From contig CM059432.1 in the NCBI GenBank assembly GCA_030390025.1, positions 19,656,001 through 19,720,000 of the forward strand: DNA of 64,000 nt, written 5' to 3'. The notes beneath the pieces were generated by a model, which saw only the letters and a list, made by a program, of their open reading frames with translations, searched no databases and had not been told where the DNA came from. The DNA is from Squalus acanthias. Its lineage: Eukaryota. The position numbers and the translations under genes are program-made. Below, in pieces: positions 2,251 through 30,503 of the stretch. Numbering within the stretch: position 1 is the stretch's first letter; every line of letters starts with the position of its first letter.

Positions 2251-5181
2251 AGGCTGCGATTTCCCCTACCTCGGCGGGACCGGCGTGGCCGGGGTCGGTG
2301 GCGGGTCCTGACCACGCTGCTGGCTCCAGCCCGCTGTCCAAAGTGATCTTACACTGATTGGGCTTGTTAAGCCTGCCCAGCACGTTTGCTGGCCAATTGA
2401 AGGAAGCGAGTCTGATGACGTTTGATAAGGTTCCCCATGGTCGGCTCATGAAGAAAGTAAGGAGTTGTGGGATAGAGGGAAATTTGGCCGATTGGATAAG
2501 TAACTGGCTATCTCATAGAAGGCAGAGGGTGGTGGTGGATGGAACATTTTCGGACTGGAGACCAGTTACCAGCGGTGTGCCACAGGGGTCGGTGCTGGGT
2601 CCTCTGCTGTTTGTGATTTTTATCAATGACTTGGAGGAGGGGACTGAAGGGTGGATCAGTAAATTTGCTGATGACACCAAGATTGGTGGAGCAGTGGATG
2701 AGGTGGAGGGCTGTTGTAGGCTGCAAAGAGACATTGATAGGATGCAGAGCTGGGCCGAAAAATGGCAGATGGAATTTAACCCTGATAAGTGCGAGGTGAT
2801 TCATTTTGGTAGGGCAAATTTGAATAAGGATTACAGGGTCAACGGCATGGTTCTGAGGAACGTGGAGGAGCAGAGGGATCTGGGGGTTCATATCCACAGA
2901 TCTCTGAAGGTTGCCACTCAAGTGGATAGAGCAGTAAAGAAGGCCTATGGTGTGTTGGCGTTTATTAACAGAGGGTTTGAGTTTAAGAACCGTGAGGTTA
3001 TGCTGCAACTGTACAGGACCTTGGTGAGACCACATTTGGAATATTGTGTGCAGTTCTGGTCACCTCACTATAGGAAGGACGTGGAAGCATTGGAAAGAGT
3101 GCAAAGGAGATTTACCAGGATGCTGCCTGGTTTGGGGGGGAGGTCTTATGAGGAAAGATTGAGGGAGTTGGGGCTTTTCTCTTTAGAGCGGAGGAGGATG
3201 AGAGGCGACTTAATAGAGGTTTATAAGATGATGAGGGGGATAGATAGAGTGGATGTTCAGAGACTATTTCCTCGGGTAGAGGCAGCTGTTACAAGGGGCA
3301 TAACTATAAGGTGCATGGGGGGAGATATAGAAGGGATGTCCGAGGTAGATTCTTTACTCAGAGAGTGGTTGGGGTGTGGAATGGACTGCCTGCTGTGATA
3401 GTGGAGTCGGACACTTTAGGAACTTTCAAGCGGTTATTGGATAAGCACATGGAGCACACCAGAGTGATAGGGAGTGTGATAGCTTGATCTTGGTCTCGGA
3501 CAATGCTCGGCACAACATCGAGGGCCGAAGGGCCTGTACTGTGCTGTACTGTTCTATGTTTCTATGACGTCACTTGATGACCCGTCATCAGCCGATTTCC
3601 TTAAAGGGGCCATGCGCAAATTTATTTTGACATTTGTGCTGTCAGTGTTCTACAGCATTGAGGTGCAGCAAACACTGACAAGCACTGCACAAAGGTGCAG
3701 GACTGAACCCAGGCTCTCTCATGACTCCCTCTATGTGCTTATGGAGGGAGTCACAGCACGCAGGGAGGTCCTCTTCCGTTCCCATGAGCGGAAGACACCT
3801 CCCCAGGAGAGCAACACTGCCTGGTTGCACATTGCACAGGAGGGCACAAGCAGGGATGTCATCAGGAGGACCAGGCTGCAGTGGCGCAAACCTTTCAATG
3901 ATCTCAGTAGTGCACGAAATGTTACTGCAAAGCCACACTCAACCTCATCCTGCTGTGCCACTCATCACATCTCCATCACTCTGCCTTCCCTACCTTACTC
4001 CTGCATACCTTACTCACACCAACTTACCTTGCGCCTCCACCCATCCCTCTCTATCTATATTATCACTTCCCCATCTCACTAGCCCCCTCTCACACTCACC
4101 CTCATCCTAATGCAATCATACCAACTAACAACACACAAGGGTAGGCACTTGTGTGTTTTAGCCAATGCTCATGTGAAGTTTTTGTTAATGTGCTATTAAA
4201 CATTGAAATCTTTATTTTGAACACTTTGCGTTCTTGGACAGATTTGTGTGCACCTTTGGAAGTGGCTTAGTGAGTTGTAGTGAATGGTGAGACATAACGG
4301 TACCCCCCGCAATGGTGACAAGTGTGAAAGGAATGGCTTGGGCATTGTAGGGATGCTTTATGGTGTTGGTGTGGGGTGGTACCAACCTGGCACATCATGT
4401 GGCAGCCAGCGTGTACAGCGTCAAGTGAAGTAAATCTGGCCATGGTGAGGCCATCCCTGGCCTCCCAGGCAGCAGTGTGGTCGGGCGCTGATGCCCTCTG
4501 TCCTATGCAGCACCAGCTGATTGCGGAGAAGGTTGGTGTTGTTGTTGGTGCTGCTGGTGTGCCAGGCGCTAATGGTGTTGGGGCTGATCGTGGTGGGATT
4601 CTGAGGACCAAGGTGAGATAGTTTCAAGGGCACCGATGCTGATGTCATAGATGGCAGGTGACCTTGAGATGACAGAAGCGATCTGTCAATGGTGAGAGAG
4701 GTTGCTCCAATGAGGTAACACTGGATACAGATTTTACTCTAAACACTTGCAACCTGCATAAAGCTCAACCTGTCTTCCAAATGCAGTAAGCAACAGCTTC
4801 TGAGCTTGGAAAGTGAACAGTTGTGAGATGGGAGCTTTTATACCACATTTGCAGCTGTCAAGTAATGATGCTTTCATGGTAACACAACTCCCGACCTGCT
4901 TACCTAACGTGATCCCCGAGCAGTGTGGACCCCATGGGCGACCTTGTAAAATTTAAAGGTGAGCTCAAAATACTTTTTAAATGGCTCTTAACAAGGTCAT
5001 AATGACCTAAATTGCCTTTCCCGCAGTTGCTTGTCGGGTCTGTTCAGCGTCGACAGACCCGACATCTGTGAAAGTCGCGTGGCAGCGGGTTGACAGCGGG
5101 TTCCTGACCCGCTGTCAAAAAAAATTTTCCCACCCGACCCGCCATCAAACGTGCCCGCTGACCCCCCAAAAAATTCTCCCC
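2251..5181. mobile_element. Internally deleted Harbinger element (Myb/SANT exon 1 plus transposase remnant), interrupted by a CR1
   Basis: The + strand at ~3680-3910 encodes PRLSHDSLYVLMEGVTARREVLF...WLHIAQE...RRTRLQWRKPFNDL (Myb/SANT-like). The - strand at ~4430-4650 carries a transposase remnant (AAWEARDGLTMARF). Right end is AAAATTCTCCCC; left boundary approximate. Confidence 0.7.
2422..3566 (+). mobile_element. 5'-truncated CR1 LINE (RT domain and 3' tail)
   Basis: ORF 2358-3398 has GVPQGSVLGP, FADDTK and VRPHLEYCVQFW motifs. 3' tail TTCTATGTTTCTATG. Flanking duplication ATGACGT at 2415-2421 and 3564-3570. Confidence 0.95.
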
Positions 5182-5361
5182 TCACTGTCTGGCTCACACA
5201 TGAAGAACAACCATTTGGGTGTTGAACCAGAGAGCTGTACCTGTAAGAATAAGCCATTTGCTGTAACTTCTGCTGTAATTTAACCAAACTTAAAAATTTG
5301 ACTAAATTTAATATACCAGCATGCATCGGGAGGCTGAGAGGCTGGTTCCTGTGAGAACTAT

Positions 5362-6072
5362 GGGGGAGAAATTGGGTGCCTTCGCGACTCTCATTAGCGC
5401 CGCCAAGGGGCACTAAAGGGGCGCAAATTACTTTGCGACCGGACTCGGCGCTGACATCGAGTCCTGCCATATTCGGCGGGTGTTTCGCGGCAGCACTACG
5501 GTATTGCGCCCCGATCTCCTTCACCTGGAGATCGTGACGTCATCGCCGTGCGCATCGCCCTGGACCTGAAATTGACTTTTGCCCCCTGCAGCAGCGCTTG
5601 CAGAAAACACCGACAGCTGCAGGAGGTGTGCATTGGGTGGCTGGCCGCTTCGGGGCGATAATTAAAGGCGAGGTGGCCGAGGTAAGTAATAAAAAACTTA
5701 TCTTTCCTGTTGGTGTTTTTTCACTTGAGTGCCGGGCTGATCGCACTGGATCGCGGCTGCCTTGGTGGTCCAGGTAGGTAATGTTTCCATTGCAGAGCCT
5801 GTAGCGATAGCCCTTCCCTTTAAGGGAGGGAAGGAGCCTTTGAACGCGGTAGCGCTGCACGGCCCAGTGTGCAGCGCTGCTGAAGTCTCCGCCCCGATAT
5901 TCAGGATTAGCGCTCCAAGAAGGAAGTGGAGTGCTTGATTTAGTGCTCCACCTCCCTCTTGGGGCGCTAAAACTGAATTTCGCGGTCGCCGGCGCTAATT
6001 AGCGCCGGGAGCTAAAGTTTGCGCCCAGGCGATGTTAGCGCCCTAAAATGGTTGATGCCGAATTTTTCCCCC
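5362..6072. mobile_element. Harbinger MITE (GGGGGAGAAATT family)
   Basis: Ends GGGGGAGAAATTGG / CCGAATTTTTCCCCC. Many TAGCGCC/GGCGCTA subterminal motifs. Colinear with the copy at 26218-26986. Confidence 0.8.
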
Positions 6073-6426
6073 TTTGTACGAAAACAGATAAAGAAGACCT
6101 TGGACAGGAACAGAGACTTTCTGCTGAAATGTAAAATAGGCTGCTGCAGTTGTAAGATGTAAAGGCTGCCAGCTGCCTCTTAACAGATAAGGCAAACAGA
6201 CCTTGAGAGTTCTGTGGAGAAGAAGCCATTGAACTGCTAAGCCGTTGCAAAAACAGGAACATCTTCAGACTTTGGAATGTAACCAGCCTTGCGGCCCACA
6301 GACTGATTGACTGACCACTAATAAGAACAAGAGAAAAACAACTACTGACCATTATTCACACAGCTGGGGACACGTATGCAGTGGGAGGGTTGCCAAATTT
6401 TAAGGTATAAAAGATGTTGTAAAAAG

Positions 6427-6512
6427 GTCTCGACCTGAAACGTTAATTCTGTTTCTCTCTCCACGGATGCTGCCTTGCCTGCTGAGTTTTTCCAGCGTTT
6501 TCTGTTGTTATT
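6427..6512 (+). mobile_element. Penelope-like pLTR fragment (3' half of hammerhead motif)
   Basis: GACCTGAAACGTTAATTCTGTTTCTCTCTCCAC matches the 8011-8088 unit. 10-bp TSD TTGTAAAAAG at 6417-6426 and 6513-6522. Confidence 0.8.
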
Positions 6513-7975
6513 TTGTAAAAAGACACTCAGGGCTTTGTTGCCAGTTCAAGTCGTACGTCTCGTCATCGCCGAACCGAGCACTCGCTGGTGTTAGTACCTA
6601 TGTAGTGTTGGCTTACTACCACTTGATTTTAAAGTAAGGGAATAAACCTGTGTATGCTTAAGTATAAATCAGGAGTTGTTATACGCAACAGTTTTGTGTG
6701 AACGTACTTGTAATTTCTTGCTGATTTTAAGTAAAAGAAGTTTTTCACGCATTCATTGAGTTTTGTGTTGTCTGTTCCACGGGCCTGAACTCTATGAATG
6801 GTTGGACGGTGCGAGGGATTATTTCCACACGTCTTACATACCCCACTCGAAGGTGCCTCATTCAGGAAAGGAGAACAAGGAAATTGGAAACAATCAATCA
6901 AAAAAGCAGTGTGATTTTTTTTAAACAGTGAGTGCTCGTGATATCGGGCAAATGAAATATAATTCCTAAGCTGAAAGTACAAGGGAGCTGAATTAAAAGG
7001 AAGCACTTCTAGTGTAAAATACATTTTCACCACAACCAAATAATTAATCAAAAAAATTCCGAACAGGAGCCACCCTGGTTTATTGCTGCGATTCCTAATG
7101 ATTTGAAACCGATAGACATCCCAATATGTATTCAGGGATTATTTAAATGAACAAGTACCCGATTCACAGAATGGACGAATCAACATCCTCTTCTGTTCCT
7201 GTTTCCTAATTAGATGCTGACTTCTAGCATTTATTTCAGCAAGTACGCAAACAGGCGATTTGTAATCATCTTGATTGCACCACACTAAAAGCAATGGCTC
7301 ACAGACCTCTTTCCCTTTTAATCATCAGTCAAGATATAGGTATTAGCCTGTGGTGCTTCAGTCATGTGAGTGTGTCTGTGAGTTCATCTCCAGCATGGTC
7401 AGGTTCAGCCACCCTTTCCTAATGAGATTTTCCCACTGCTCTCATCAGCACTATATTTCAGAAAATCAACAGAAAATGAAAGGCTGTCAAAATGAATTAT
7501 AAATCACGGGGTAGAGTTTCCGCTCTATTGCGTCAGTTATATCAGCGCAATTCGGGCGCAATTGGCCGAATCAGTGCAAAAGATCAGGGCATTCTAAACA
7601 CGAGTTACACCCAAAACCACTTGCGTTCGTATTTTCCGCTGGTTTAAGATTCAACTTACCGGATCAGGCCCCGCCCACAAAACTGGCCACACCTCCGTGT
7701 TGACATTGCGAGATTCCGCTGCTTACGCGGGTTCGGGGAGGCTCGTGAAATTGTGCGCTCCTAGGCACAGGCACGTTTTTAAAGCTTTTCATATCAAAAC
7801 ATATTTAATTTACGAAGAAACTGACTAAGGTGCACCAATGAGAGTAGCAAATGGTGCAGTACAGTTTTTTTTTAATGCAAAAGCAAAGTACTGCAGATGC
7901 TGGAAATCTGAAATAAAAACAGAAAATGCTGGAAATACTCAGCAGGTCAGGCAACATCTGTGGAGAGAGAAACTG

Positions 7976-8012
7976 AGTTAACGTTTCAGGTCGATGACCT
8001 TTCGTCAGTTCT
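7976..8012 (-). ncRNA. Second minimal hammerhead motif (opposite strand)
   Basis: Minus strand reads CUGACGA-A-AGGUC(AUC)GACCU-GAAA-CGUU-AACU. Core intact, but the local stem I pairing is poor. Confidence 0.6.
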
Positions 8013-8043
8013 GATGAAGGGTCATCGACCTGAAACGTTAACT
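8007..8043 (+). ncRNA. Minimal type I hammerhead ribozyme motif
   Basis: AGUU-CUGAUGA-A-GGGUC(AUC)GACCU-GAAA-C-GUU-AACU: conserved core, stem II, palindromic stem III (AACGUU) and a 4-bp stem I, as in Penelope-associated HHRs. Confidence 0.75.
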
Positions 8044-8863
8044 CTGTTTCTCTCTCCACAGATGCTGCCTGACCTGCTGAGTATTTCCTGTAGTTTTTTT
8101 TTAAAGTCGTTTTCAGTGATTTTAAATCAGGTTATTCACAGGTGGAGGACTGGACACCCTTATTAAAAATTCTTATTTTTGGTGATATACCCATTTTCAG
8201 CTGTATTAATAAAATAAAATTAATAAAATTTAACACTCTTAAATACATCCCTGAATGGCCCAGAATTTGCTATAACTGGTCAATGAACGGTGCTCGCCTA
8301 ATAGTGAGGCTTCTTCTTTCAGGGTAAGTTTGATGCCTATTACTTAAAGAAAACTTCCTTTGATATTTTCATTTCTTCTCCAGTGTTGACAAGGTACAGA
8401 TATAGTGCTTCACAGTGGAGGGTATGATGGTGTAGTTAGTACATTGTCTGTGGAAAGAGCAGGCTTGATGGGTTCACACGCTACCTCTCATGTTCCAAAT
8501 ACAGAGTATGTCATCGTGGCAGTGCACACTGATATAAAAAAGGCAAATGAATGTCTTGCACCTCATTATTACACTGGCACTAGCTCAATCTCACTTCGTC
8601 TATTCAAACCATCACCTTGCTGCACTGAGGCAGTCATAACATGGATACGAAATGATTTTAAATTTCAAAGCTTCCATTTTAGAAATCGTAACAAAGCCTC
8701 CAGATACTGATGCCTCTAAAAGGGTGGTGGTGGTGGTGGGCCGAAGCAAGAGGGAAAATGGAAGTCACTTCACTGGCAATTTAAGGACATGATTTACAAT
8801 ATTATGTATTGACGTGATCTTTTCCTCTTGCAGGCTCTTTCCACCCACTACCATGAAATTCAA

Positions 8864-9325
8864 AAAGAAAGAAAGACTTGCATTTATATAGCACCTTTCA
8901 CAATCTCAGGATGTCCCAAAGTGCTTTACAGCCAATTAAGTCCTTTTTTTTTTAAGAGTAATCACTGTTGTAATGTGGGAAACGCGGCAGACTATTTGCG
9001 CACAGCAAGCTCCCACGCATAGCACTGTGATAATGACCAGATAATCTATTTTTGTGATGTTGATTGAGGGATAAATATTGGCCAGGCCACCGGGGATAAC
9101 TCCCCTGCTCTTCTTCGAAATAGTGCCATGGGATCTTTTACGTCCACCTGAGAGAGCAGACGGGGGTCCCAGTTTAATGGCTCATCTGAAAGACGGCACC
9201 TCCAACAGTGCAGCACTCCCTCAGCACTGCACTGCAGTGTCAGCCTAGATTTTTGTGCTCAAGTCTTTGGAGTGGGACTTGAACCCACAATCTTCTGACT
9301 CAGAGGCGAGAGTGCTACCAACTGA
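8864..9325 (-). mobile_element. tRNA-derived Deu-domain SINE (SacSINE1-like)
   Basis: Reverse complement of the 24608-25063 unit: pol III B box GGTTCAAGTCC, central GATCCCATGGCACTATTTCGAAGAAGAGCAGGGG, (CTTT)n tail. Confidence 0.88.
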
Positions 9326-9757
9326 ATTCGCTCGATTTCTTCAGCATAAGGCCATGTAGGAATTTCACGTTTTCCAAATGGACTCATTCCATCCTATTGG
9401 AATCAAGCAAATATTTCTTTCCAACATAGGTGCTGCCGGACAAATCATTCATAACTGGGCCTGAGTTATATGAAATAAAAATTATATGACGAGTAAGTTA
9501 AACAGAGCTTTTGGAAACACACACACTAAAAGAAACTGTCATCACACACTCACCAAGGTGAAAGGCAATTACACTGGGGAATGGAGCAATGGAGCAAAGT
9601 CAAGTACAGCTCCAGCCAGATGCAGAGTAAAACTCTGCCTTAACAGTATACCTTAATCCCAAATCTAAAGGCACACCCTCTCCATACCAGTTTGAATTTT
9701 CCCAGTTCCCACCTTAAAAGTCCCTGTAGTTTTTCTGAGTGAAATTCCCAATTTAAT

Positions 9758-10184
9758 AAAAGAAAGAACTTGAATTTATAGAGTGCCTCTCAGGTTCCTC
9801 AGTTGCTTCATAATTGTGTTTTTGTTTAGTGCAGTCACTGTTCACTCTTGTAATGTAGGTGCAAAGCTAGTTCACACTAGCAGCAATGATAAATGACCAG
9901 ATAATCTGTTTTAGTGGTGTTGATTGAGGGATAAATGTTGACCACGACATCAGGGCAACTCCCCTGCTCTTCTTCAAACAGTGGCCATGGCATCTTTTAC
10001 ATTTATCTGAAAGGGCAGAGTTTAATATCTCATCCAAAAGATGTCACCACCCATAGTGCAGATCAACCTCAGTACTGTACAGTAGTGTCAGTCTAGATTA
10101 CATACTCAAGTCTCTGAAGTGGGGCTTAAACCCCATGACCTCCTGATTTAAAGCAAGAGTGCTACCACTAAGCCATGGCTGACA
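9758..10184 (-). mobile_element. Deu-domain SINE (more diverged copy)
   Basis: Same head, body and tail order as the other copies, with more substitutions. Confidence 0.82.
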
Positions 10185-10203
10185 CCTGGCAAATAAATAG
10201 TAC

Positions 10204-10895
10204 TAGAAACATAGGAAAATAGGAGCAGGAGTAGGCCATTCGGCCTTTCGAGCCTGCTCCACCATTCAATATGATCATGGCTGATCCTCTATCTCAATAC
10301 CATATTCCCGCTCTCTCCCCATACCCCTTGACGCCTTTTGTGTCTAGAAATCTATCTATCTCCTTCTTAAATATATTCAGTGACTTGGCCTCCACAGCCT
10401 TCTGTGGTAGAGAATTTCACAGGTTCACCACCCTCTGAGTGAAGAAATGTCTCCTCATCTCAGTCCTAATTGTCCTACCCCGTATCCTGAGACTGTGACC
10501 CCTCGTTCTAGACCCCCCAGCCAGGGGAAACATCCACCCTGCATCCAGTCTGTCTAGCCCTGTCAGAATTTTATATGTTTCAATGAGATCCCCTCTCATT
10601 CTTCTAAACTCAAGTGAATACAAACCTAGTCGACCCAATCTCTCCTCATACGACAGTCCTGCCATCCCAGGAATCAGTCCGGTGAACCTTCGCTGCACTC
10701 CCTCTATGGCAAGTATATCCTTTCTTAGGTAAGGAGACCAAAACTGCACACAGTACTCCAGGTGTGGTCTCACCAAGGCCCTGTACAACTGTAGTAAGAC
10801 ATCCTTGCTCCTGTACTCAAATCCTCTTGCAATGAAGGCCAACATACCATTTGCCTTCCTAACTGCTTGCTGCACCTGCATGTTTGCTTTCAGTT
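10204..10895 (-). mobile_element. CR1 LINE 3' fragment
   Basis: ORF 10417-10881 (LVRPHLEYCVQFWSP...RRMRGDLIETYKI) plus CR1 3' UTR. Confidence 0.93.
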
Positions 10896-11214
10896 ATGGG
10901 AAGTTTTTTGTGTGGACTCACAACCCACAAACAAGATTAAAGTTGGCCAAGTTCATTTTACTTAGGTACCTTTACAAAGACCTCATTTGATCAGGTTGGG
11001 TTAGATTCAAACCCAGGTTCCAGAGGTGAAAGGGTGCTGCATTATTGAATCCTTGACTACATGGTGTTTACTCACTATTGAAAGTTAATCACAAATATTA
11101 TTGTCAAGATCAGTAATTTTACTTGCAGATTATTGATATTTAATTTGCAGCATTATATTAGTTAAGAAACAACAGCAAACAAGCAGTATGCACCTTTACT
11201 GATTAAGCTCCTTT

Positions 11215-11533
11215 CTTTGACAGCATCTCCCAAGCCCACGACCTCTACCACCTAGAAGGACAAGGGCAGCAGGCGCATGGGAACACCATCACCTGCAAGT
11301 TTTCCTCCAAGTCACACACCATCCTGACTTGGAAGTATATCGCCGATCCTTCATCATCACTGGGTCAAACTCCTGGAACTCCCTCCCTAACAGCACTATG
11401 GGAGGACCTTCACCACAAGGACTGCAGTGGTTCAAGAAGGTGGCTCACCACCACCTTCTCAAGGGCAATTAGATATGGGCAATAAATGCTGGCTTTGCCA
11501 GCGCCGTCCACTTCCCATGAACGAATAAAAAAA
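11215..11533 (+). mobile_element. 3' end of second LINE family (CR1/L2/Jockey group)
   Basis: Matches the 3' part of 40824-41643. Ends CACCACCTTCTCAAGGGCAATTAG...AATAAA...poly-A. Confidence 0.82.
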
Positions 11534-12088
11534 TAGTAAATATTTACATTAAATCTATTTGAGAAGAAAATATGGCCGCAAAATTCAGCTCCTTAGCGCC
11601 CATTTTTTCGATGCTATGAGTGCTGTTTTGGTTCCAAATTGGCGTCCACAGCATGCGCGAACACTTCTGGTATGAACCACATCGGACGCCATCTTGGGTA
11701 GGGCATTAGTGCATGCGCAGGGAGTGTCCGCTGGAAGTATGCAGAGTAGGCACATCGTGACATCAATCAACGTATCACGCTGATTTGACACCAGCGCTGC
11801 CATTTTAGAGCTCAAAGCTCCAACTAATGCCCGCTCTTAAACACGCACAGCTGAACACGCACTCAGTAGCAGGAAGGACCCCCCACCAGCGCTATTTAAA
11901 GGGATCATCAACTACTTGCAGGTTAGTTGCTGATTGATTGCTACTGGCTCTTGCTGAGGTTGTAGAAGTGTTTGGTGGTTTCTAGAGTTGCTTAAAGTTG
12001 TTAAAGTCTACAGGGTGTGGTGTGACATGTGCTGAAGGACTTTGTTCTGACTTCATGGATTCTGCCCACAAACCACTTGCTCCCAGAC

Positions 12089-13080
12089 ATGGGTGCACTA
12101 GTAGGCATTCCCCTTGGACTATAGCATGACAGTGAGAATGAGCAGAGGCGACACAGAGCAGGACAAGCTGCTGGCAGAGGGAGGAGGAGGAGAAAATCTT
12201 TCAGCAGGAGGCCATATCTGCCCAGGTTGTTCAGGGAGCAATTCACCTGCTTGAACCTCAGCAAGGAACAGTGTGTCAGACATCTGCGCTTAAGTAAGGA
12301 TGTCCTCACTGAAATCTGCCACCTGCTGCAGCCACAACTGCAACCTCAGAGCAGGGCGAGGGCTGCATTGCCAGTGGCTGTGAAGGTGAGCGTGGCCATG
12401 ATTGTTATGCGTCGGGATACCTCCAGGCTGGAGCAGGTGATATTTGCAACATCTCCCAGTTTGCTGTCCACTGTTGCATAAGGGAGGTCACTGAGGCTCT
12501 GTATTCCAATAGAGCTAAATACATTTCATTCTCTCTTGCCAGAGAGCAGCAGGTCGAGCAAGCACACGGCTTTGCAAGGATTACAGGCTTCCTCATGGTG
12601 CAGTGTGCCATTGACTGCACGCACGTTGCTTTGCGGGTGCCACATTTCAACTCTGAGATGTACCGCACCCGAAAGGGATTCCACCCCCTCAATGTCCAGC
12701 TGGTGTGCGACCATACTCAGCGAATCATGCAGGTCAATGCCCGGTATCCTGGCAGCAGTCATGACTCTGTTGCACAACCCACGCACACGTGGGCAACATG
12801 CACACAGTGAAAGCCATGCTGCCACACGCAATGTGATAGAGCACACCATTGGCATGCTGAATCAACACTTTCGCTGCCAGAACCGCTCTGGAGGAGCCAT
12901 GCGGTACTCGGCAGAGCGTGTGTCAAGATTCGTGGTGGTCTGCTGCATGCTGCACAACCTCGTCATCATGAGGGCACAGCCCTTGTCACCAGCTATACAA
13001 TGACCAGCTGAGGAGCAGGAGGAGGAGGCAACCTAGACAGCCCCTTTCTGGCCGGGCTGTCCACGAACTGCTATACCAGT
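12089..13080 (+). pseudogene. Harbinger (HARBI1-like) DDE transposase, disrupted
   Basis: Fragments in different frames: [70 protein letters not shown] deletion at ~12765 removes the second catalytic Asp region. Confidence 0.9.
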
Positions 13081-13264
13081 AAACACAACCCCAATTCCCC
13101 ATTCTCCAATAGTTCCACGCCTGACCTTCCCTCTGTTACTAACCATCACAGCGTCCGCTTGGCCACAATGCGAAAATAAAAGCCAACACAAAATAAACAT
13201 TCCAAAGCAAATTTATAAATTGAAGCCTGCCATATTGCATACAAACGTCAACTAATCACCCTTG

Positions 13265-14055
13265 TGCATTCCCTTGGTGCCTGTCTTCTGTGTGCCTTTG
13301 CCTGTCCTAGTGCTCATATGCAGTGCTACCCCAGTGGCTGAAGCATGGATGATGGAAGGCTGCTAACTTTTGTTGAGGGAGACTGAAGATGGCCTTAGAG
13401 GACGACCTCGAGCCGCTCTGGGCCTAGAAGGCCCGGCTTCGGACTGCACCATCTCGGCATGGGCAGCAGCAGTTTGGACTGGGCTGGGTGACAGGCAACA
13501 GTAAGGGCACTGGCAGTGTGGTAGTGGTGGGAAGACGAATGCTGTCATCCTGAGAGAGGACAGCAGGTTCGTACTCCACGGAGCCACTGCCACTCCCCCA
13601 GGGCGGCGCCTCAGCAATCCCAGTAATCTGTTGGAAGACAGATTGCTGGGTTGCTGTGGCACCCTGCAAACCCCTTTGAACACTGGTATCTGCAGCCATG
13701 CTGGCAGCAATGTGAGCTTGCGTGACAGCAAACTGACCTTGCATGACGGAAGTCTGAGCTTCACTGCTGCACCCAGAAGTTGGGTGGCTTCTGCTTGTGC
13801 TGCAATGGAAGCTGAGACATCGGCCATCAGACACTGCATCAAGTGTGCTAATGGAGTTGGCCACTGCTTCCATGTTGGAAAGGATGGGCTCCAACCTCTG
13901 CGCAAAGCCCTGTGCCGAGTTGGTGCTGGACTCCTCCATGCTCTTTGACATTGCACGCAGGCTTTCTGACAGGCCTGCCAATGCACCAAGCATTTCATCG
14001 TGCATACCCATCACACTTCTTCTGTGGCCCGCCCCATCGAAGTGCTCATCTGAGT
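13265..14055 (-). pseudogene. Harbinger ORF2 (Myb/SANT partner) C-terminal coiled-coil part
   Basis: MMGMHDEMLGALAGLSESLRAMSKSMEES aligns by eye with ORF 63207-63524 (MMGMHTEKIGAMARVPESLSAMVRSMEQS). N-terminal exons are absent. Confidence 0.75.
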
Positions 14056-14699
14056 CATGTCATCGTGATCTTCGCTCCTGTTTTCGGGGGCGATTGAATT
14101 TTGCCCCCCCCGTATTGTCACTGCTTTTGTTTCAATACTATTTTGTTCTAATTGTATCTTGCTAAAAGTTTCCTATCGCTTCTACCCCTTTTCTGGAAAA
14201 TTAGCCATAGTTGATGAAGTCATTAAATCGATACTCCCCCCACTTATCCACTTACAGTCTTGCCTGCAGATATAAGTTCGTGTGCTGCTACTCTATGTTA
14301 ATGTAGGGATCTTGAAATATAATGTAGCTCAGAAGAGGTTCGCTAGTTACTTATTAAGACCATATAAGGTATAAAATTGCACTGTGTAATATTGGACAGT
14401 GCAACTTGGCTCCCACATTGAGCAGAGGTGTATAAATTCCTCGAGTTGGCTGAATGACTTCAGCACAGTGATTTCACTAAGACTGCAGTGACAGAAGTGT
14501 GACATTTTTTTTGCAGCTGCACTGTAGGGATTTTTTCACTCGGATTTCAGTGAAGCTGAACGATGGGTGTGTGAAGTTGTCATCCACTTAAACTGTGGAA
14601 AATGCACAACAACACGATTACAGATTTTGTCTTTCCAAACTTTTGTTTGGAGAGACCATTTTTTTTTCAGCCACGCAACAAATAGCATTAAGTACAAGG

Positions 14700-14800
14700 T
14701 CAAAAACAGAAAATTCTGGAAACATCTGCAAGTCAGTCACTGTCTGTGGAGAGAACAGACAGGTTAACGTTTCAGGTGTAACCCTTCATCAGAACTGGAA
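14700..14800 (-). ncRNA. Penelope pLTR fragment with minimal hammerhead motif
   Basis: Minus strand reads GUU-CUGAUGA-A-GGGU(UAC)ACCU-GAAA-CGUU-AAC (core at 14786-14792). Confidence 0.65.
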
Positions 14801-14909
14801 GAAATTACAGATAAATAGCATTTAATTTGAATATACAGATTAAGGTATTAGCATAAAGTACTGAGTTTTCAGGTCGATCACTGATTGTCGTTGTGGTGGA
14901 AGTAATCAC

Positions 14910-19261: not shown

Positions 19262-19421
19262 GTTGAGTAAGTACCTGACGGAAAAAAAAATCGCAGGGCT
19301 ATGGGGAAAGGGTTGAGAGTGGGACTAGCTGAAGTGCTCTTGCAGAGAGCCGGCAGGAGCTCAATGGACTGAATGGCCTTCCTCTGTGCTGTAACCATTC
19401 TAGGAGTCTATGATTCTATGA
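19262..19421 (+). mobile_element. CR1 3' UTR fragment
   Basis: GAATGGCCTTCCTCTGTGCTGTAACCATTCTA...TATGATTCTATGA matches the tail at 45660-45815. Confidence 0.8.
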
Positions 19422-19904: not shown

Positions 19905-20742
19905 GAATATAGGAAGAGGAGTAGGCCATTTCGCCCATCGAGTCTGTCAGATAGGTCATGGCTGATCTGTACCTTGAAACCATTTACCTGCTTTTGATCC
20001 ATATCCCTTGATAACCTTACCTAATAAAAATATGTCGATCTCAGTCTCGAAACTATTAATTGACCCAGCATCTATGGCCTTTTGGGGTAGGGAATTCCAG
20101 ATTTCCACTATCCTTTGCGTGAAAAAGTGCTTCCTGATTTCGCTCATAAATGGCCTAGCTTTAATTTTAAGATTGTGCCCCCTTGTACTGGACTCCCCCA
20201 TTACGGAGGAAATAGTATCTCTGTATCTACGCTGTTGAATCTTTTATCCTTTTAAACACCTCAATAGATCACCCCTCAAATTTCTAAACTCATGGGAATA
20301 CAACCCAAGTTTATGCAGCCTGTCCTCATAATTTAACACTTTAAGCTCTGGCATTGTTCTGGTGAATCTGCTCTATACCCCCTCCAAGGCCAAAATATCG
20401 TTGCTGAGGTGTGCTGCCCAAAACTGAACTGTACAACTGAGGCATAACTTCCTCCACTTTGTATTCCCTTGAGATAAAAGACATTAGTCTTTTTGATTAC
20501 ATTTTGCATCGGTGCACTGGCTTTTAGGGATTTTTGTACATGGATACCCAAATCCTTTTGCTCCTCCACAGCTCCTAGTCTCTCTCCATTTAGAAAATAT
20601 TCCGATTTGACTTTCTTGGATTCAAAGTTACACATCCCCAAATTTAACTCTGTTTGTCACAGTTTTTCCCAATCTTATAATCTGTCTATATCCCTTTGTA
20701 ACATCCTGCTCCCATCCACACAACTTGCTGTGCCTCCGAACC
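19905..20742 (-). mobile_element. Diverged CR1 3' fragment
   Basis: TRGHNLKIKARPF...HFFTQRIVEIWNSLP and YFLNGERLGAVEEQKDLG. Confidence 0.85.
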
Positions 20743-21442
20743 TTAGTAGCCATTCAGCGAAGGGAAAAGACATATAATAACATTTTGCTGGCTTGCCATT
20801 TAATTTCTTTAGAAAATAAAGCTCTGATCTATTAAAAACACATGTCAGGTGATATCAGCTAAATACATCCATGGATATGTTCGACGTCTGCATTCAAAGT
20901 GAGCTTAAACTGCCTTTCACGCTGCTAAAACACTCTTTAATGTTTGCTCGCTCCTTTCATTTTTAAATAGGCTCGCAAAAGGATTTTTTTTTTCATCGCA
21001 GCGGCAGGACATCACATCAAAGCAGTGAGGCTTTCACTCCATCCACAGCGCTGTTACTTCTGACACTCGTTTCTTGCCAGACTCTTTCTGAACTGTCTTG
21101 AGATCTTTATCCCAGCAAAGCCTACTGTGAACACACCATCCTCTGAAGAATTTGTAATCTTTATCTTAAATAGGCTACAAAATGATTCTATGATTCTTTG
21201 AAAATCTAACAACTGCATTTTTCCCTTTAAGCTGACAGTTAATTCCGCAGCACTTAGCTCTTAACTTGCCTACTTTCAGACTTAGCTTAATATATTGCAT
21301 CTCATTTGTATTAATGCTCACTGATGTCTCTTGCCCTTCGCAACCCTTTGATCATGCAGCAGAGGCAATTCCACCATCCCTTGCTCCCTGTGAGAAGCCA
21401 CGCACGGAGGAAGCACGGGTCGGAGGTAGAGCTACAATGTTC

Positions 21443-23257
21443 TAGAATCAGAGAATCAGCGCGGAAGGAGGCCATTCAGCCCATTGTGTCTGTGTCGGCC
21501 AACAAAGAGCTATCCAGCCTAATCCCACTTCCCAGCTCTTGGTCCGTAGCCCTGCAGGTTACAGCATCCCAAGTGCACATCCAAGTACTTTTTAAATGTG
21601 GTTAGGGTTCCTTCCTCTACCACCCTTTCAGGCAGTGAGTTCCAGACCCCCACAATCCTCTGGGTGAAGAAATTTCCCCTCAAATCCCCTCTAAACCTTC
21701 CCCCAATTATTTTAAATCTGTGCCCCCTGGTTTTTGACCCCTCTGCTAAGGGAAATAGGTCCTTTCTATCCACTTTATCTATGCCCCTCATAATTTTATA
21801 TACCTCAATAAGGTCTCCCCTCAGCCTCCTCTGTTCCAAGGAAAATAGACCTATCCAGTCTTTCCTCATAGCTAAGATTCTCTACTCTCGGCAACATCCT
21901 TGTAAATCTCCTCTGTACCTTCTCTAGTGCAATCACATCTTTCCTGTAATGTGGTGACCAGAACTGCACGCAGTACTCTAGCTGAGGCCTAACTAGTGTT
22001 TTATACAGTTGAAGCATAACCCCCCTGCTCTTGTATTCTATGCCACGGCTAATAAAGGCAAGCATTCCGTATGCCTTCTTGACCACCTTATCTACCTGGC
22101 CTGCTACCTTCAGGGAAATGTGGACATGCACTCCAAGGTCCCTTTGTACCTCTACACTACTCAGTATCCTACCATTTAATGTGTATTCCCTTTCCTTGTT
22201 AGACCTCCCCAAATACATTACCTCACACTTCTCTGGATTGAATTCCATTTGCCACTGTTCTGCCCACCTGACCAATTTATTGATATCGTCCTGCAGTCTA
22301 CAGCTTCCTTCTTCAGTATCAACCACACAGCCGATTTTAGTATCATCTACAAACTTCTTAATCTTACCCCTTATATTCAAGTCTAGATCATTGATATATA
22401 CCACAAAAAGCAAGGGATCTAGTACTGAGCCCTGCGGAACCCCACTAGAAACAGCCTTCCAGTCACAAAAACACCCATCAACCATTACCCTCTGCTTCCT
22501 GTCTCCGAGCCAGTTTTGAATCCAACTTGACACTTTGCCCTGGATCCCATGGGCTTTTAACTTTGTGACCAGTCTGCCATGTGGAACCTTATCAAAAGCC
22601 TTGCTAAAGTCCATATACACTACATCAAACGCACTACACTCATCGACCCTCCTTGTTACCTCCTCAAAAAATTCAATCAAGTTTGTCAGACACGACCTTC
22701 CCTTAACAAATCCGTGCCGACTATCCTTGATTAATCCGTGTCTTTCTAAATGAAGATTTATCCTGTCCTTCAGAATTCTTTCCAATAATTTTCCCACCAC
22801 CGAGGTTAGGCTGACTGGCCTGTAATTACTCGGTCTATCCTTTTCTCCCTTTTTAAACAAGGGTACCACATTAGCAGTCCTCCAGTCCTCCAGCACCACA
22901 CCTGAAGCCAGAGAGGATTGAAAAATGATGGTCAGGGCCTCTGCTATTTCCTCTTTTGCTTTGCTTAACAGCCTGGGATACATTTCATCCTGGCCTGGGG
23001 ATTTATCCACTTTTAAAGCTGCTAAACCCTTTAATACTTCCTCTCTCACTATGTTTATTTCATCTAATATTTCACACTCCTCCCCCCTGATAGCAATGTC
23101 TGCTTCGCCCCTCTCCTTTGTGAAAACAGACGCAAAGTATTCATTAAGAACCCTACCGACGTCTCCTGCCTCCACACACAGATTACCCTCATGATCTCTA
23201 ATAGGCCCTACCCTTTCTTTAGTTATCCTCTTACTCTTAATATATTTATAAAATATA
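21443..23257 (-). mobile_element. CR1 LINE, 5'-truncated, with a long open RT frame
   Basis: 508-aa ORF 21805-23331 with NYRPVSLTS, YMDFSKAFDKV, GVPQGSVL and KFVDDTK, followed by a frameshifted C-terminus (21519-21869). Confidence 0.95.
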
Positions 23258-23849
23258 GTGCCCATTTTCCGACGAGTTCTCCCACCTAGCCCAGCTCCCA
23301 CTGGGAGAATAGCATCAGTGTAAACATTCAAGATTCATATCAGACTGTGAGCTTCAAAATGCATGTAGTTGTTTTTTTCTAAACAAGTTGGTTTCATTTA
23401 ATTTTTCTTATAATGGGGGCGGGTGAAGGGGCAGAAAGACAAAGAGAAGTCGAGGCATTTTTGCAAGCTGCTGCATAGCCTTCATTTTGGTCCGGTAATT
23501 GTGGTTTCACAGTGACGTAAATCAAAAAAGATCCCGAGCTCAATCAAAATGTTTGGGCTGACAGAATCCTGACAAGACAATCTGAACCTTTCACTTCTTG
23601 ATACAGCTACACATAAAAATGACACAGGAAAAACACGACAATACCTCTAGCGTATCTTTACAAATAAGTTGGCAAGCATCAGACTCAAAATGTGATTCCA
23701 AAAGCTTTTAATTGAAGTTGCTCTGCAGCCTTGCATCTGAAGTGTTAATCCTGTCCTCAGGGGGGTGTTACAAGAAAGAATCTCAATGCATTTTGAATTT
23801 GTTGGTGGTAGAAAATAAGTATTTTAAGAACAGGAACAGGCCCTGGACC

Positions 23850-23960
23850 CAACGGTTCAAGAAGGCGGCTCACCACCACCTTCTCAAGGGCAATTAGGAA
23901 TGGGCAATAAATGCTGGCCTTGCCAGCGACGCCCACATCCCATAAACAAATAAAAAAAAC
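23850..23960 (+). mobile_element. Second LINE family 3' tail
   Basis: CGGTTCAAGAAGGCGGCTCACCACCACCTTCTCAAGGGCAATTAG...poly-A. Confidence 0.8.
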
Positions 23961-24607
23961 AAGCCTGTCCCTCTTCGATAGATTAACCCCACCTATCTAC
24001 ATTCTCTCCATATTCTTCAATGCCTTCTCTTTCCAGAAACACAACTAATGACCTCTCGAACCCATTCATACTGTGCACTTCAAGGTCTCCCCTAATAAAT
24101 TATTCCATGATATTATTTTCCTTTGCAGGTTTGTCAATTCCTTCAGCAATCTTGAAAGTCTGAATGAGGTTGCCTCAGAGCCTTCATTCTAAAGAAAGCA
24201 ATGACCACCTTACCTCATAAATAAAACCCGGCTAGCTGGAATCTTATTTGTTGCTCTCCTCTGTACCCTTTCAGGAGGAATAATACCATTTGTATGATTA
24301 GAACTTTCTAAGAGTCAGCCCAGATATTGCGCTTTTGGTGTGATGTGAACACAGAGGAGGAGATGCTTAACCAACATTCTGTGGTCGCATTCTTGAGGCG
24401 TGAAACATATGTTTTATGCCTTAAATATTCTCCAGCTGAACAATAAAATGGGAGTGGGAAGTCTCCTGAAGATCTGCAAATTTAGTTTGCACAAGGTCAC
24501 TCGAACAAAATGGCAGCAGAATTTGTATGAGCCTCTCAGTTTGGGTAAGAAACTCACAAATGAAGTGACTCCTACCGAGTCTTATTGTGAAGTGATTCTA
24601 AGCCTGT

Positions 24608-25063
24608 GTCAGCTGTGGCTCAGTTGGTAGCACACTTGCCTTTGAATCAGAAGGTTGTGGGTTCAAGTCCCACGCCAGGGACTTGAGCACATAAAGCTAG
24701 GCTGACACTCCAGTGCAGTGCTAAGGGAGTGCTGCACTGTCGGAGATGCCATCTTTTGGATGAGAAGTTAAACCGAGGCCCCGTCTGCTCTCTCAGGTGG
24801 ATGTAAAAGATCCCATGGCACTATTTCAAAGAAGAGCAGAGGAGTTATCCCCAGTGTCCTGGCCAATATTTATCCCTCAATCAATATAGCAAAAACAGAT
24901 TATCTGGTCATTAGTACATTGCTGTGCGCAAGTTGGCTGCAGCATTTCCCACATTACAACAGTGATTCCACTTCATAAGTTCTTCATTGGCTGTAAAGCG
25001 CTTTGAGACGTCTGGTGGTCGTGAAAGGCGCTATATAAATGCAAGTCTTTCTTTCTTTCTTTC
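24608..25063 (+). mobile_element. Deu-domain SINE (SacSINE1-like)
   Basis: A box TGGCTCAGTTGG, B box GGTTCAAGTCC, Deu-like body, L2-type tail and (CTTT)n. Confidence 0.9.
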
Positions 25064-25149
25064 TAAGCTCTGTAAATGTAGAAGGGAAATCTTGTGAAAA
25101 TAGGAGTTCTTTACTTATAGTATGCAGCAACCAAACGCACGTTGTAGCA

Positions 25150-25862
25150 GAAGTCGGGTAGGAGCAACACTGAGGATGGAAGCTGGTGGAAGGGAGGGCA
25201 AAGGGTTGGATATGAAGAGGGAGAGGGAAGGGGTAAATGGTTAGTACTGAATGGAGGTGCAAGGGGGCAGAAGCCAGGACCAATGCTTTGGAGGGGAAGA
25301 GAGGAGAAGCTGGGAGTGTTGCTTCGGGGTGGGTGAGGAAGGAGAGTTCAAGCATTAACTGAGAGAGGAAGAGTGACAGCATGAACTGGGGTGGGGTGGG
25401 GTGTGGAGGGAAGAGGTTGACATGAACTGAGAGGGTTGGAGATGTAAAGAGTGCCGATCTGAGCTGGGAAGGAATGAAGAGTGTCAGTTTGAATGGGAAA
25501 GGGAGGAGGAATAGTTCCATTTTAATAGGGGGTGAAAGAATAGGGCCAACTTGAACTGGGTTAGTGCGGTAGAAGAGTGCCAGGTGGAATTAAAGATAGT
25601 GAGGGAAAAGAGTGTTTCACAAACTGGGGATGGAAGAATTGAGTGGGGGAGGGAGAACAGATTGAATTGAGGGGTGGAGGGGAACACTGCCAGGTTGAAT
25701 TGGGGGAGGGGTGAGAGGCAAATAAGTGACAGCATAAACTAGGAGTGTTGGAGGAGGACTTTGTGTCTCTCTAAAAGTGTAGGCACATCAATGGGGTAGA
25801 GGGCCTTTATGAAATGGTATTGGGAGCGGGGGGGGAGGGGGGCGGGGGTTCGATGTGGGAGA
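25150..25862 (+). repeat. Purine/G-rich low-complexity tract
   Basis: Strong G+A bias with recurring TGAA(C/T)TGRG-like motifs and G runs (25387-25400, 25822-25848). Confidence 0.6.
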
Positions 25863-26217
25863 GTAAGTTGCGGTAACTTTTGAGAAAGTGATGCTCTAGT
25901 TGCTCTGTTGAAGATCCAAAAGCCACTTTACTTTTCATTTCTTTAAGATTAAAAATGTATAAATTGCAGAATGTAAAATTGCTTAAACGTAACCGGAATG
26001 CATAATTTTTAATGCAAAAATTCCAAAGTTTCCAAGCGAGTATTCCCCCAGCTCCATCTAGAAATGCATCACTTTATATCTTCAATATCTGGATGGCCAA
26101 CCCCCCCACCCCATCACCACCCCTCAGATTTTAATGTACTTCTGTTATTTTTTTCTTTAACATAAACGAAGAAATGTAGGACGTACAGCTTGAGTTGAAA
26201 AGCTCATAAAACTGCAT

Positions 26218-26986
26218 GGGCTAGAAATTCGGCTGCTTTGTGCCTCCCGTTAGCGCCTGTGGGGGCGGTAACGGGTCGCTAAGGGGTTACCGACAGGGCG
26301 CGGCGAAATCAGCGACGCCCGCGAACTTCCCTGGCGGTTTTGCGCTGGCACTAACACTTGCCACCTCGGTCTCTAGCGCCCCGTAGAGCACGACGTCATC
26401 AAGTGCGCAGCGCCCCGTTACCGCCCCGGAGGCGAAATTGACTTTCGCCCCCTGCATTATCGCCTCGCGCTGACAACGGCAGCAAGAGGAGGCGTTCCGA
26501 AGTCGGATGGCTGCTTCGGGAGCGGTAATTAAAGGGAATGCACTTCATATCGCTGAACCGTTATTATTTGCACCAGTCTGGTGCCTGCGCAAAGTTTTCA
26601 CTCTTTCATTGTTGCAGGATGTCCAAGCCCTCCACTTGGTGACAGTGTTTGGGGCTGTATTGGCAGTCGCCTTGCAAGACTACAGTGCCGAAAAATAGCT
26701 TCTGGTGTCGGTATTGGCCCTTCCCTTTAAGTGAGGGAAGCAACCTTTGTGATTGAAGAGTGCCGTCTGGAATGCGCTGCAAATTGTCTCGCGCTCTGCC
26801 GGTACCGACCCGCTCTCCAACTTTAGCGCCCTAAGAGAAGTGGTTAGCGACCTGATTTAGCGCTCGACTTCCCTCTTGGAGCGCTACAACTGAATTTCAC
26901 GGGAGCCTATCAACATTAGCGCCTGGTGCTAATTTTTCAGCTTTCGAAGTTTTAGCCCAAACGGGGCTAGAATGAATTTCTCCCCC
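26218..26986. mobile_element. Harbinger MITE
   Basis: Ends GGGCTAGAAATTC / GAATTTCTCCCCC. Flanks CAT/CTT. The left ~300 bp is colinear with the left end of the 60954 element. Confidence 0.82.
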
Positions 26987-28432
26987 CTTGTCTTTACATG
27001 TTAAGTTAAAATCTCCCAGGCCACAAGCTGCTGAACTTGGGACGGTTCGCCGCCCACATTGGCTCATGCCCACCGGGCTCCTGCCTCCAGTTAAAATCAG
27101 GGCTTGGGTCTCTTATGGGAAAAGCAGAAGTCAGCAGCATAAAGCATGCAAACCACTGACGTTTGCTGCCACACGTTAAATATATTTCTTGCTGGTAGAT
27201 GTAGGAAGAAGGCACTGGCACTATGGGCCGAATGGCTTCCTCCTGTGCTGTATAATTCTACAATCTTATGAATAGTTTTACAACATGTCAGCCTCCTCTG
27301 CTCCTATTGTACACTGGGGTGGGGGGAATTATATTTCAATAGGAATGGAAAATGCTTCCAGTAATCACTGCTTGTAGTGATCATTCGGATTGGGGATGGG
27401 CAATAAATGCTGGCCTGCAAGCGACGCTCACATCCTGTGAATGAATAAAAAAAAGTACAAAATCACACTTGCATAATGCGCTTGTATTAATTGTGCATCT
27501 CTCATCTGTTGCGTTGCCCAGTTTTTGTTCCAGACTCCCCCTCCACTGTTTCCCACATTCTGATGTAGTTTCCATCCCATTGCCACCTTCTGATTCAGCT
27601 TCCGAACAACATGGACAAACATGGCAAGGCATCAGGCAGAAGAGGTGGGCAATGCGCCAGGGCTGTTGTACAATTTACTATGAGCTGTTCAAAGTGCTAG
27701 TGAGCGATGCTCAGCTGTTCAACACCACTGTTCGCCGGTCCTCTAAAACTATGCCAGAAGGTGGCAATCCTACTGCCCACTGTCTGATACAGTAATCGTT
27801 TGGCTCTAATGGTCATTTGGGACCTGCCCAAATCTCTATATTGGATTTCACTCTAATGGCAGTGTACTACAGTTCTTCTAAGAATATTTAAAAAATAAAA
27901 CGTTTGGTTCGATGATCAAGCAAACCCAGTGGGAAATTTGCCAAAGTCCAACACAATAAATGCAGAAATTTATTTGTGTCAGATGGGGAGTTTCCATCCA
28001 TTAATTTTAAGGCACGGAAAATCCACAGGCTTCATCCCATGATTCCCCAGGATTTACTCCCTGTGAGCACCGCCCCCGTCCCACTCCCGCTGGGAAGGAT
28101 GGATTGCGGATATCACCCGTAGTATTATTATTTTCTGCCCTTCTGCCTCTAGGTCTTCCTGCAGCGTGCATCATCCCGAGCCTGGAGGACAGGCTGGCAA
28201 TCTGCTCCTTCGTCTCTGCCAATGCCTCTCTATAAACAGCTACTGGGTGGTTCCTTGCGTGGAAACTCCTGGCCTCCACTCGGACAGGGAAGCCGCCTCC
28301 TGTAATGGAGAAAACAGTCCCAAAAGGTGTGGGCCCAGGGAGTGGTTGTTACTCCTCCCCCGCCAAAGGCTGGTAGATTTTGCATTTTCTTTCCTTTTAG
28401 TTCGTTCTTTCCCATCTTCACCTTGTACAAAA

Positions 28433-29029
28433 ACCCTGATTTTAACTCAGGACGGGAGTCCGGCGGGCGAGAGCTGAGGAGGGTGGCAAACTGACCCGAC
28501 CTCGATAGTGTTGAGGCCCGGGAGTTTTGCCTCATCTGCAGGACTGTGGTCAGTTTCCTGCCCGAGCCCGGTGCAATGTCAAGCATAAGGAGTCCAAATC
28601 GCCGGCGACCAAAGAAACAGGCCCCCGGCACTCAGGCAACTTAATTGGGGGGGGCAGGAATTGGCCTAAACTTTCCTTCTGGGGCCTTGGAGGAGGACTC
28701 CTCCTCATTCTAGCTCCACAAGTAAAGTAGAAAAAATTTTGGCCTTCTTCTGGCTCTGATTCCTCTTCCCGCTAGGCTGGCCTGACGGAAAAGCCACAAC
28801 CACTTTCCTCGCTCAGGCCCATGGTTAAAATAACAGTCGAGCCCTGATTATGTCATCGGAGTCCGATTTTTGTATTTAAAGAAGGACCCTTTCGGTTCCT
28901 GGGGGATGTCCTGCTTAGAAGAGCAAGTTAAGTTGCAGTCTGGGGGATTGGTAGGGGGCATTGGCGGATGAGTCCCGTTGGCAATTTTGGCTGCCCGCAC
29001 ACCGAGGGGGGGAGGGTTAAAATCTCCCC
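28433..29029. mobile_element. Harbinger-like MITE (GATTTTAAC ends)
   Basis: Left GATTTTAAC and right GTTAAAATCTCCCC, with a GC-rich interior. Confidence 0.5.
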
Positions 29030-30018
29030 TAAAGTTTCTAGAATTTAAGGAATTAGCTAAGTAAATCTCCTCAGAGGTGTTCTAACTCTGTTAGGTTGTC
29101 ATCAATTTGTATGTCTTTGAAATCTGGTACCAGCCGGATAGATCAAAATAGTCTTTTCCAGTTCTCTATGCCCGGCCCTTTAATTTATTTTCTTTCTTTT
29201 CAAAGCCACGAGTGTCAAATTTATTTAGTCTTCCCAACGTCAATAGCTGTATGTTTGACACAACTTCCAGAAAAGTGTAATGTTCTAATACCCTCAACAG
29301 CCACTCAGTCCCTCAACTGGCTAGCTCCACTTCAGCAGCCCATCTCACAACCACACACTACGTGCATCATCCCGGCTGAAGAATTAGGCCAACAGCGCAT
29401 TGGTATGTTGTGTGTACCTACTTCTCTCAGCCCGCCCAAAAAAATGATTAGCATGATCTCTGACGGAAGGTCATTGACCTGAAATGTTGGGCTCGATTTT
29501 GCCAGGCCCGAGGAAGCGGCTTTGGAGGCGTGTGAGTTGTCAAAATTGCAAAAAATGGCGGGTGGGTCCGATCCCGCCTCCATCCCGCCTCTGAACAATT
29601 TACCCACATTCGTGGTTTCAGACCCCATTTCCATCCCGCCTCCAAGAGGCGGGATAGGCCCTTAAGGCCCTTAACAACCACTTAATTGCCTCTATAATCC
29701 CATTTTGAGAGACCTTTCTGGTTTTAACACATTTCCCCCGTCCTGCACGTCTCCGCTGGAACAAGCCAGTTAGTCCTGGCGGCCTCACAAGTGGATTGCT
29801 TACTAACAGCTGCAGCTCCACCATTAAAAAGGAGTTTTCACCAATGATCATTTGCAGGTGGCAGAACTTTGTTGTCTCAGGGCTGGGGGAACTTTTAGCA
29901 GGCCTACTCATTGTTGTGGAAGTTTGGAGCCTGACACCCATCTCCAGCGTGACCTCCTGGGAAACCCCTCTCCCCACCTTGACTGAGCGCTTCCTCAACT
30001 GAGGTATATGCCAGAAGC

Positions 30019-30246
30019 ATGGGAACCATTAATTTCCTTTCCTCCTGGACATCAGATTCGGACGAAGACCAGCCGCGGCAGCAGCAGAACCCTGAACAAC
30101 AACACCACCAACAGCAGGAGCAACAAAAGGAGAGCCAAGCAGCTGCTCGCCCACCTGAAGCTGCACAGGCCAGAAGGCGCCAGTGCGCGACCACATTGCT
30201 GCCCGGGATGCAAGGGACGCACTCATGTTGGCCAGATTTGCTTAGC
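30019..30246 (+). pseudogene. Transposase remnant (N-terminus fused to C-terminus, DDE core deleted)
   Basis: Gln-rich start MGTINFLSSWTSDSDEDQ followed directly, out of frame, by AARDARDALMLARFA*. This resembles the transposase C-terminus at ~62530-62573 (AVRDRLIRLRFQ*). Confidence 0.6.
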
Positions 30247-30503
30247 CTGCACAATCAAACACTTTTGCCTCGCACCTTCTTACCAGAGCATCGAGAATGG
30301 ACAGGAACCTACGGATTCCTATCACTCTGACCACCATACTGACAATTGCAAGTCGCCCTAAGCCCTCAATGTGGAAGTCCCATTTGCAAAATGACACAGG
30401 CCACAACTTCAACAGTTTGCCATCAAATCTGTTAATCATAACAATTCAAGGATGGCTTGTCAAAAATCAATACAACAGAACAACCAAGTGACTACCCTTG
30501 TGA

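Follow-up and report, generated by a model that had tools for sequence, protein, structure and literature searches.

Harbinger transposons that keep only a DNA-binding protein gene are already known. In the available passages of PMC8437027, Harbinger-Snek variants of this kind are multi-copy, with 452 intact in the sea krait Laticauda colubrina, and PMC13668399, as far as its accessible text goes, describes Harbinger-1M_cIno and Harbinger-2M_cIno as MADF-only PIF/Harbinger elements of Caenorhabditis inopinata, where elements with only the DNA-binding gene have expanded, DDE-bearing copies are rare, and the authors suggest, hypothetically by their own account, that transposase is supplied in trans. 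Harbinger3_DR, an autonomous two-gene element of zebrafish, needs both of its proteins, according to the sections of PMC9710019 at hand: its Myb protein binds the transposase as well as a subterminal 9-bp motif, and nuclear colocalisation of Myb and transposase depends on the Myb protein. The accessible part of PMC9179366 reports no single-ORF (open reading frame) Harbinger in teleosts and no Harbinger of any kind in elephant shark, and asks for a check of other cartilaginous fish; the passages of PMC5741667 and PMC9392472 at hand hold no Myb-only lineage. Here we describe two Harbinger derivatives, E1 and E2, from a 64,000-nucleotide (nt) stretch of Squalus acanthias (assembly GCA_030390025.1, contig CM059432.1, positions 19,656,001 to 19,720,000; hereafter the window, in which all coordinates are given, with the strand of an element taken from its transposase sense). 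Since Myb-only Harbingers were known before, the architecture is not new and the window adds a shark example. A literature search that left out supplements and Repbase found no paper that treats this family of sharks or a junction common to two subfamilies; the family may already have a name in Repbase.

On balance, the evidence favors E1 and E2 as non-autonomous Harbingers of two diverged shark subfamilies which lost about 1 kb of transposase sequence separately, by way of the same inferred repeat. In both elements, what remains of the transposase is ~51-56 codons of the N-terminus and 18 of the C-terminus, which meet out of frame. The initial annotation had proposed that the two remnants are colinear across this joint, and their junction regions indeed align without a gap (77.2% identity over 92 bp, E=1e-12, self-BLAST of the window). 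Both remnant peptides lie where they had been placed, the E2 frame being open over 30019-30330 and the Gln-rich E1 frame (minus strand, 4637-4432) holding two stops, both TAG. A 20-mer of the C-terminal motif, searched with up to 3 mismatches, occurs at two places only in the window, and 0 of 100 shuffles gave a double match.

Comparison with shark proteins P0022, P0033, P0044 and P0080 showed that the remnant ends correspond to both ends of PF13359-bearing proteins, as expected if the remnants derive from full transposases. The N-terminal remnants match the N-termini of DDE-bearing proteins (E1 against P0022, E=2e-11; E2 against P0033, E=4e-7), and the C motifs of both elements match the C-termini of P0044, P0080, P0022 and P0033. 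None of the 143 HARBI1-like transposases collected as a reference set found a DDE core inside E1 or E2 (E<=1e-3), in agreement with the earlier claim that the core is missing from both, and the spacing in P0036 puts the loss at an estimated ~1.0 kb. A third copy of the junction, of the E1 type, was recognised in antisense reading in residues 1-62 of the Pristiophorus gene model P0044 (63%, E=2e-17, gap-free at the junction); over 49 residues at its end, the DDE-bearing part of the same model is 65% identical to E1. Shark HARBI1 gene models are often decayed or chimeric, other cases being the off-frame N-terminus of P0022 and the Myb-transposase fusion P0023, beside the antisense exon of P0044. 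Internal deletions are common in the E2 family, with other joints in contigs of sequencing runs, which would allow two unrelated breakpoints to coincide by chance, without a repeat to guide them; we consider this very improbable, given that the breakpoints agree gap-free across the ~1-kb core and that a third copy has the same junction.

Whether the shared junction stands for one deletion or two was examined through the divergence of the two elements. Over the first 20 remnant codons, which align gap-free from the start codon, the proportions of synonymous and non-synonymous differences (pS and pN) are 0.74 and 0.32, and the differences fall 9/2/14 by codon position (P=0.0035, few second-position changes). 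Such a bias is not expected of a remnant that drifts neutrally, and this coding-type divergence suggests that the two lineages split while still intact. For the whole N part, pN/pS is 0.64 (bootstrap 0.43-0.99). In the C-terminal frame four residues of E2, D, A, L and A, stand as E, G, M and T in E1 and in the undeleted P0080; P0022 carries the E and G, P0044 the M and T, and the D and A of E2 recur in other undeleted proteins. E1 also tracks P0044 for ~30 residues beyond the C motif, a region in which no significant match between E1 and E2 was found (82% of 300 shuffles score as well).

The position of the junction points to a repeat. In both elements, homology with undeleted C-termini sets in 7 codons ahead of a His codon, at 4500 in E1 and 30171 in E2. 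Over this stretch P0044, P0080 and P0022 give 0.57-1.0 mismatches per codon, compared with 2.0-2.4 upstream; a fit as good was reached by 0.03-1.5% of 20,000 random 21-mers. On the N side, 14 contigs of sequencing run X7 leave E2 after 30183 and continue as RMEARRRRRY (translated here), the basic run which precedes the YP..VYR motif of undeleted transposases. An undeleted allele therefore exists, from another organism and maybe not of E2's own subfamily. Because C-side homology from 30171 and the N-side allele to 30183 overlap, we read the overlap as a 13-16-nt imperfect direct repeat. After excision, gap repair would anneal the two copies of this inferred repeat near the ends of the transposase gene, and a deletion between them gives the same junction whenever the event recurs; if such a built-in repeat guides deletion, diverged subfamilies could carry one and the same junction without having inherited it from a common ancestor. 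The master copy of E2 would have kept both ends and its Myb gene because they lie outside the deletion, and was then likely amplified in trans by the transposase of undeleted relatives. E1 and E2 resemble in this the non-autonomous families that arose from internal deletions between short repeats in Ozma, a Tc1/mariner element which, in the available text of PMC3814204, was miniaturised by microhomology deletion to the MITEs (short for miniature inverted-repeat transposable elements) Gnome, Elf and Goblin. In Ozma, however, 6-8-bp repeats gave different junctions in one parent, whereas the shark elements show the same junction in two subfamilies.

Several observations weigh against two separate deletions. 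The repeat is reconstructed by back-translation of proteins and from a single loose end in another organism, and of the 8 undeleted C-termini only 3 back the 7-codon overlap, with P0036 fitting E1 weakly. To the N-terminus of P0033, E2 and E1 fit equally well. In the last 15 N codons, gap-free when anchored on the junction, the differences fall 7/4/4 with no position bias, and in the C motif pS between E1 and E2 is 0.28 (3.5/12.3 sites), the two frames being indistinguishable. An Asp codon before the His is common to E1 and E2 and occurs in 0 of the 8 undeleted proteins, and a 24-residue tree with corrected outgroups places E1 and E2 together without support (36/77).

The Asp codon and this tree would be readily explained if one ancient deletion founded a Myb-only lineage, which has since diversified its ends and its Myb under selection while borrowing transposase, much as the initial annotation proposed. 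The junction is identical in length and register, a one-clade topology was not rejected (p-AU 0.136) in an earlier small tree in which at least two outgroup rows were misanchored, and Myb exon 1 of the two elements has a dN/dS of 0.29 (pS 0.65, pN 0.33). This ratio does not speak for a Myb-only phase, since coding constraint of the same kind is seen at the start of the remnant, with pN and pS matching those of the exon. Furthermore, the coding-type divergence of the first 20 codons and the grouping of E1, by residue states and 3' sequence, with the DDE-bearing P0044, P0080 and P0022 argue against a single founding deletion, and we regard it as unlikely. To fit the data, such a lineage would also have to keep its short N-terminal peptide under selection, for instance as a decoy or regulator; this fuller version, with a single origin of the shark lineage and with Myb and ends evolving to borrow transposases, appears quite unlikely. 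The E2 frame of 103 codons that runs through the junction is open, a point in favor of the single lineage, and no similar protein was found: 0 of 3 candidates were significant in a protein homologue search, phmmer gave 2 matches that were judged chance (a repeat protein and a short tandem peptide), and there was no Atlas match. If the single lineage were true, a two-gene transposon could survive over long times as a Myb adaptor with a borrowed enzyme, a possibility that the C. inopinata paper treats as hypothetical.

The deletion may also have occurred once, with gene conversion or a template switch in gap repair then carrying its junction into the other subfamily, so that ends and Myb would have histories apart from that of the junction. 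E1-E2 identity peaks at the junction (76-79%, with 58-62% in the flanks), which would agree with such a transfer; however, the C motif is conserved among undeleted proteins and the peak thus needs no transfer, and over 24 junction-side residues E1 is no closer to E2 (13 identical) than to P0080 (15) or P0044 (14). Myb intron 1 is also alignable between the elements (E1 3920-4145 against E2 31990-32222, 141 of 196 ungapped columns). Its alignment score of 120, against a shuffled maximum of 55, is unexpected where 65% of the neighbouring exon synonymous sites differ, and may reflect constraint or exchange. Taken together, we give junction transfer a small chance, and continue to favor separate deletions guided by one repeat.

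Copies elsewhere inform on how the E2 family may have spread. Its copies were sought by a word search over 24 sequencing runs, and the contigs of 4 runs were then aligned to E2. E2 words are present in 20 of the 24 listed runs (8 coded organisms, 9 studies); E2 is covered without a break at the junction in run X7, where 37,229 contigs spread over all 30 bins. The contigs of the runs show a multi-copy family that keeps the whole Myb region. The summed contig depth over E2 is not a copy number, and we therefore call the family only abundant. The raw-read run X21 held distant relatives only (77 reads, all partial), and metagenome scans with the junction pattern and with Myb exon 3 gave no match. 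None of the listed runs with E2 words is given as RNA; two runs guessed to be RNA cover the E2 introns and ends as well as the exons, and among 15 of the 55 joints none was a Myb intron joint. Two further internal deletions in the family were seen in X7, one contig each (31528->32021, 492 bases; 29510->31416, 1905 bases).

From the number of copies and the undeleted allele we infer mobilisation of the E2 family in trans by a related transposase. The proposal of a Myb-only lineage stands in part: E1 and E2 are non-autonomous with the same junction, the E2 family is multi-copy with its Myb region, and an allele that could supply transposase exists. The Myb gene could have helped E2, because in Harbinger3_DR the transposase is brought to the nucleus by Myb, which also binds subterminal motifs; that E2 amplification needed or selected for Myb is not what we infer, which is passive carriage.

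In E2 itself all three Myb exons are present and the gene is broken at three places (one frameshift, two stops; Table 1). At 31803 other copies of the family are longer by four bases, and at 30921-30924 they also differ from E2, so at least two of these lesions look private, a point that would also suit a lineage living on its Myb. Among 40 of the 643 E2 variants in the run contigs, the E2 Myb differs from the family majority at 16 coding sites, 4 synonymous and 12 non-synonymous. This is what neutral decay of the E2 copy predicts; it counts against the single lineage and says little on the family masters. Convergent Myb/SANT sequence had been noted in both elements, and a SANT exon is present in each (PF13873, cut-off 21.7 bits), although E1 retains exon 1 only and the E2 gene is broken.

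In E1, Myb exons 2-3 (~1.5 kb in E2) are deleted, which is difficult to reconcile with a lineage maintained for its Myb; with exon 1 and intron 1 only, E1 is not a Myb-retaining element in any functional sense. This deletion also sits on an imperfect repeat, as E1 4134-4154 aligns to both E2 intron 1 and the 3' end of the E2 Myb, and a second repeat-guided deletion would have removed most of the gene. No in-frame start codon was seen adjoining E1 Myb exon 1, and E1 was not recovered by a scan of the window for pairs of terminal inverted repeats (TIRs). The copies of E1 and E2 in the window are dead relics.

Table 1. Features of the Harbinger derivatives E1 and E2 in the window (TSD, target-site duplication; LINE, long interspersed nuclear element).
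Feature	Position	Strand	Remarks
E1, old Harbinger derivative	~2252..5181	-	right end clear; left end ~2252 degenerate, uncertain, like the TSD
LINE fragment inserted in E1	2422..3564	+	6-bp duplication TGACGT at 2416-2421 and 3565-3570; presumably CR1-like
E1 Myb exon 1 (SANT domain)	3684..3905	+	PF13873, 27 bits; 46% amino acid identity to E2 exon 1
E1 Myb intron 1	3920..4154	+	joined at 4134-4154 to the Myb 3' end via the imperfect repeat
E1 transposase C-terminal motif and following stretch	4345..4479	-	out of frame; 65% over 49 amino acids to DDE-bearing P0044
E1 deletion junction	4480..4500	-	stretch compatible with undeleted relatives on both sides, N and C
E1 transposase N-terminal remnant, acidic and Gln-rich	4501..4637	-	two stops; start codon decayed
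E2, complete transposase-less Harbinger, 3255 bp	29489..32743	+	perfect 16-bp TIRs 29489-29504, 32728-32743; TSD GTT
E2 transposase N-terminal remnant	30019..30170	+	frame open to stop at 30328-30330, 103 codons
E2 deletion junction	30171..30186	+	C-side homology from 30171; N-side allele without the deletion follows E2 as far as 30183
E2 transposase C-terminal motif and stop	30192..30245	+	out of frame with N part
E2 Myb exon 3	30504..31591	-	in-frame stop at 30921-30923
E2 Myb exon 2	31748..31903	-	frameshift near 31803, stop downstream
E2 Myb exon 1 (SANT domain)	32223..32465	-	PF13873, 45 bits

E2 has the features of a PIF/Harbinger element: perfect 16-bp TIRs, a 3-bp TSD, a PF13873 Myb and HARBI1-type transposase ends. 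Short TIRs, a 3-bp TSD and a Myb/SANT gene are shared with Harbinger3_DR (available passages of PMC9710019 and PMC9179366); unlike autonomous Harbingers E2 has lost the DDE core, and its TSD is GTT, not the TWA consensus of the nematode family. Autonomous activity is ruled out for both E1 and E2, as neither has a DDE core and Myb is broken in both, and a domesticated Harbinger Myb gene of the NAIF1/MSANTD type is likewise excluded, the E2 Myb being multi-copy, TIR-flanked and broken. Compared with the solo-ORF variants of Harbinger-Snek, which in the part of PMC8437027 at hand are one young family in Laticauda, E1 and E2 stand for two subfamilies with saturating synonymous divergence and one junction, and their copies in the window are decayed. 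Unlike the MADF-only elements of C. inopinata, for which a new insertion and the expression of intact MADF genes have been reported (PMC13668399, accessible text), the shark elements still carry the two ends of the transposase, fused into a remnant.

E2 is inserted in a short dispersed repeat, and element-free flank joints were seen in contigs of three runs. The repeat surrounds E2 at 29460-29488 and 32744-32814 and recurs at 6423-6513, 7911-8102 and 14702-14797, where two of its copies, at 7917-8102, are paired in inverted orientation.

Harbinger derivatives are dense in the window. An element at ~11570-14105, of a subfamily distinct from E1 and E2, has a broken DDE transposase (PF13359, with frameshifts and an apparent internal gap) and a fragment of Myb exon 3 only. 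A two-gene Harbinger at 60955-64000, 69-74% identical to it in blocks, has both genes broken and runs past the window edge. The window is rich in repeats and its closest named proteins come from sharks, a transposase fragment showing 78-80% identity to Pristiophorus japonicus models. The window DDE Harbingers (~12090-13060 and 61350-62575) were rejected as partners, since they match other transposases and the adjoining Myb exon 3 is 22-26% identical to that of E2. Among smaller elements, a MITE-like Harbinger pair at 34243-35106 and 53612-54489 is 89% identical, the second copy having 14-bp ends that match each other and a CAA duplication, and an 810-bp MITE-like element at 56232-57041 has E2-like TIRs, an ATA duplication and 74% identity to the 5' end of E2 over 106 bp. 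Short elements with related ends lie at 5353-6074, 26217-26986, 37646-38299, 39317-39903 and 59122-59570. Finally, a long LINE at 47856-51530, which we take to be CR1-like, contains several consecutive ORF pieces and is apparently near full length.

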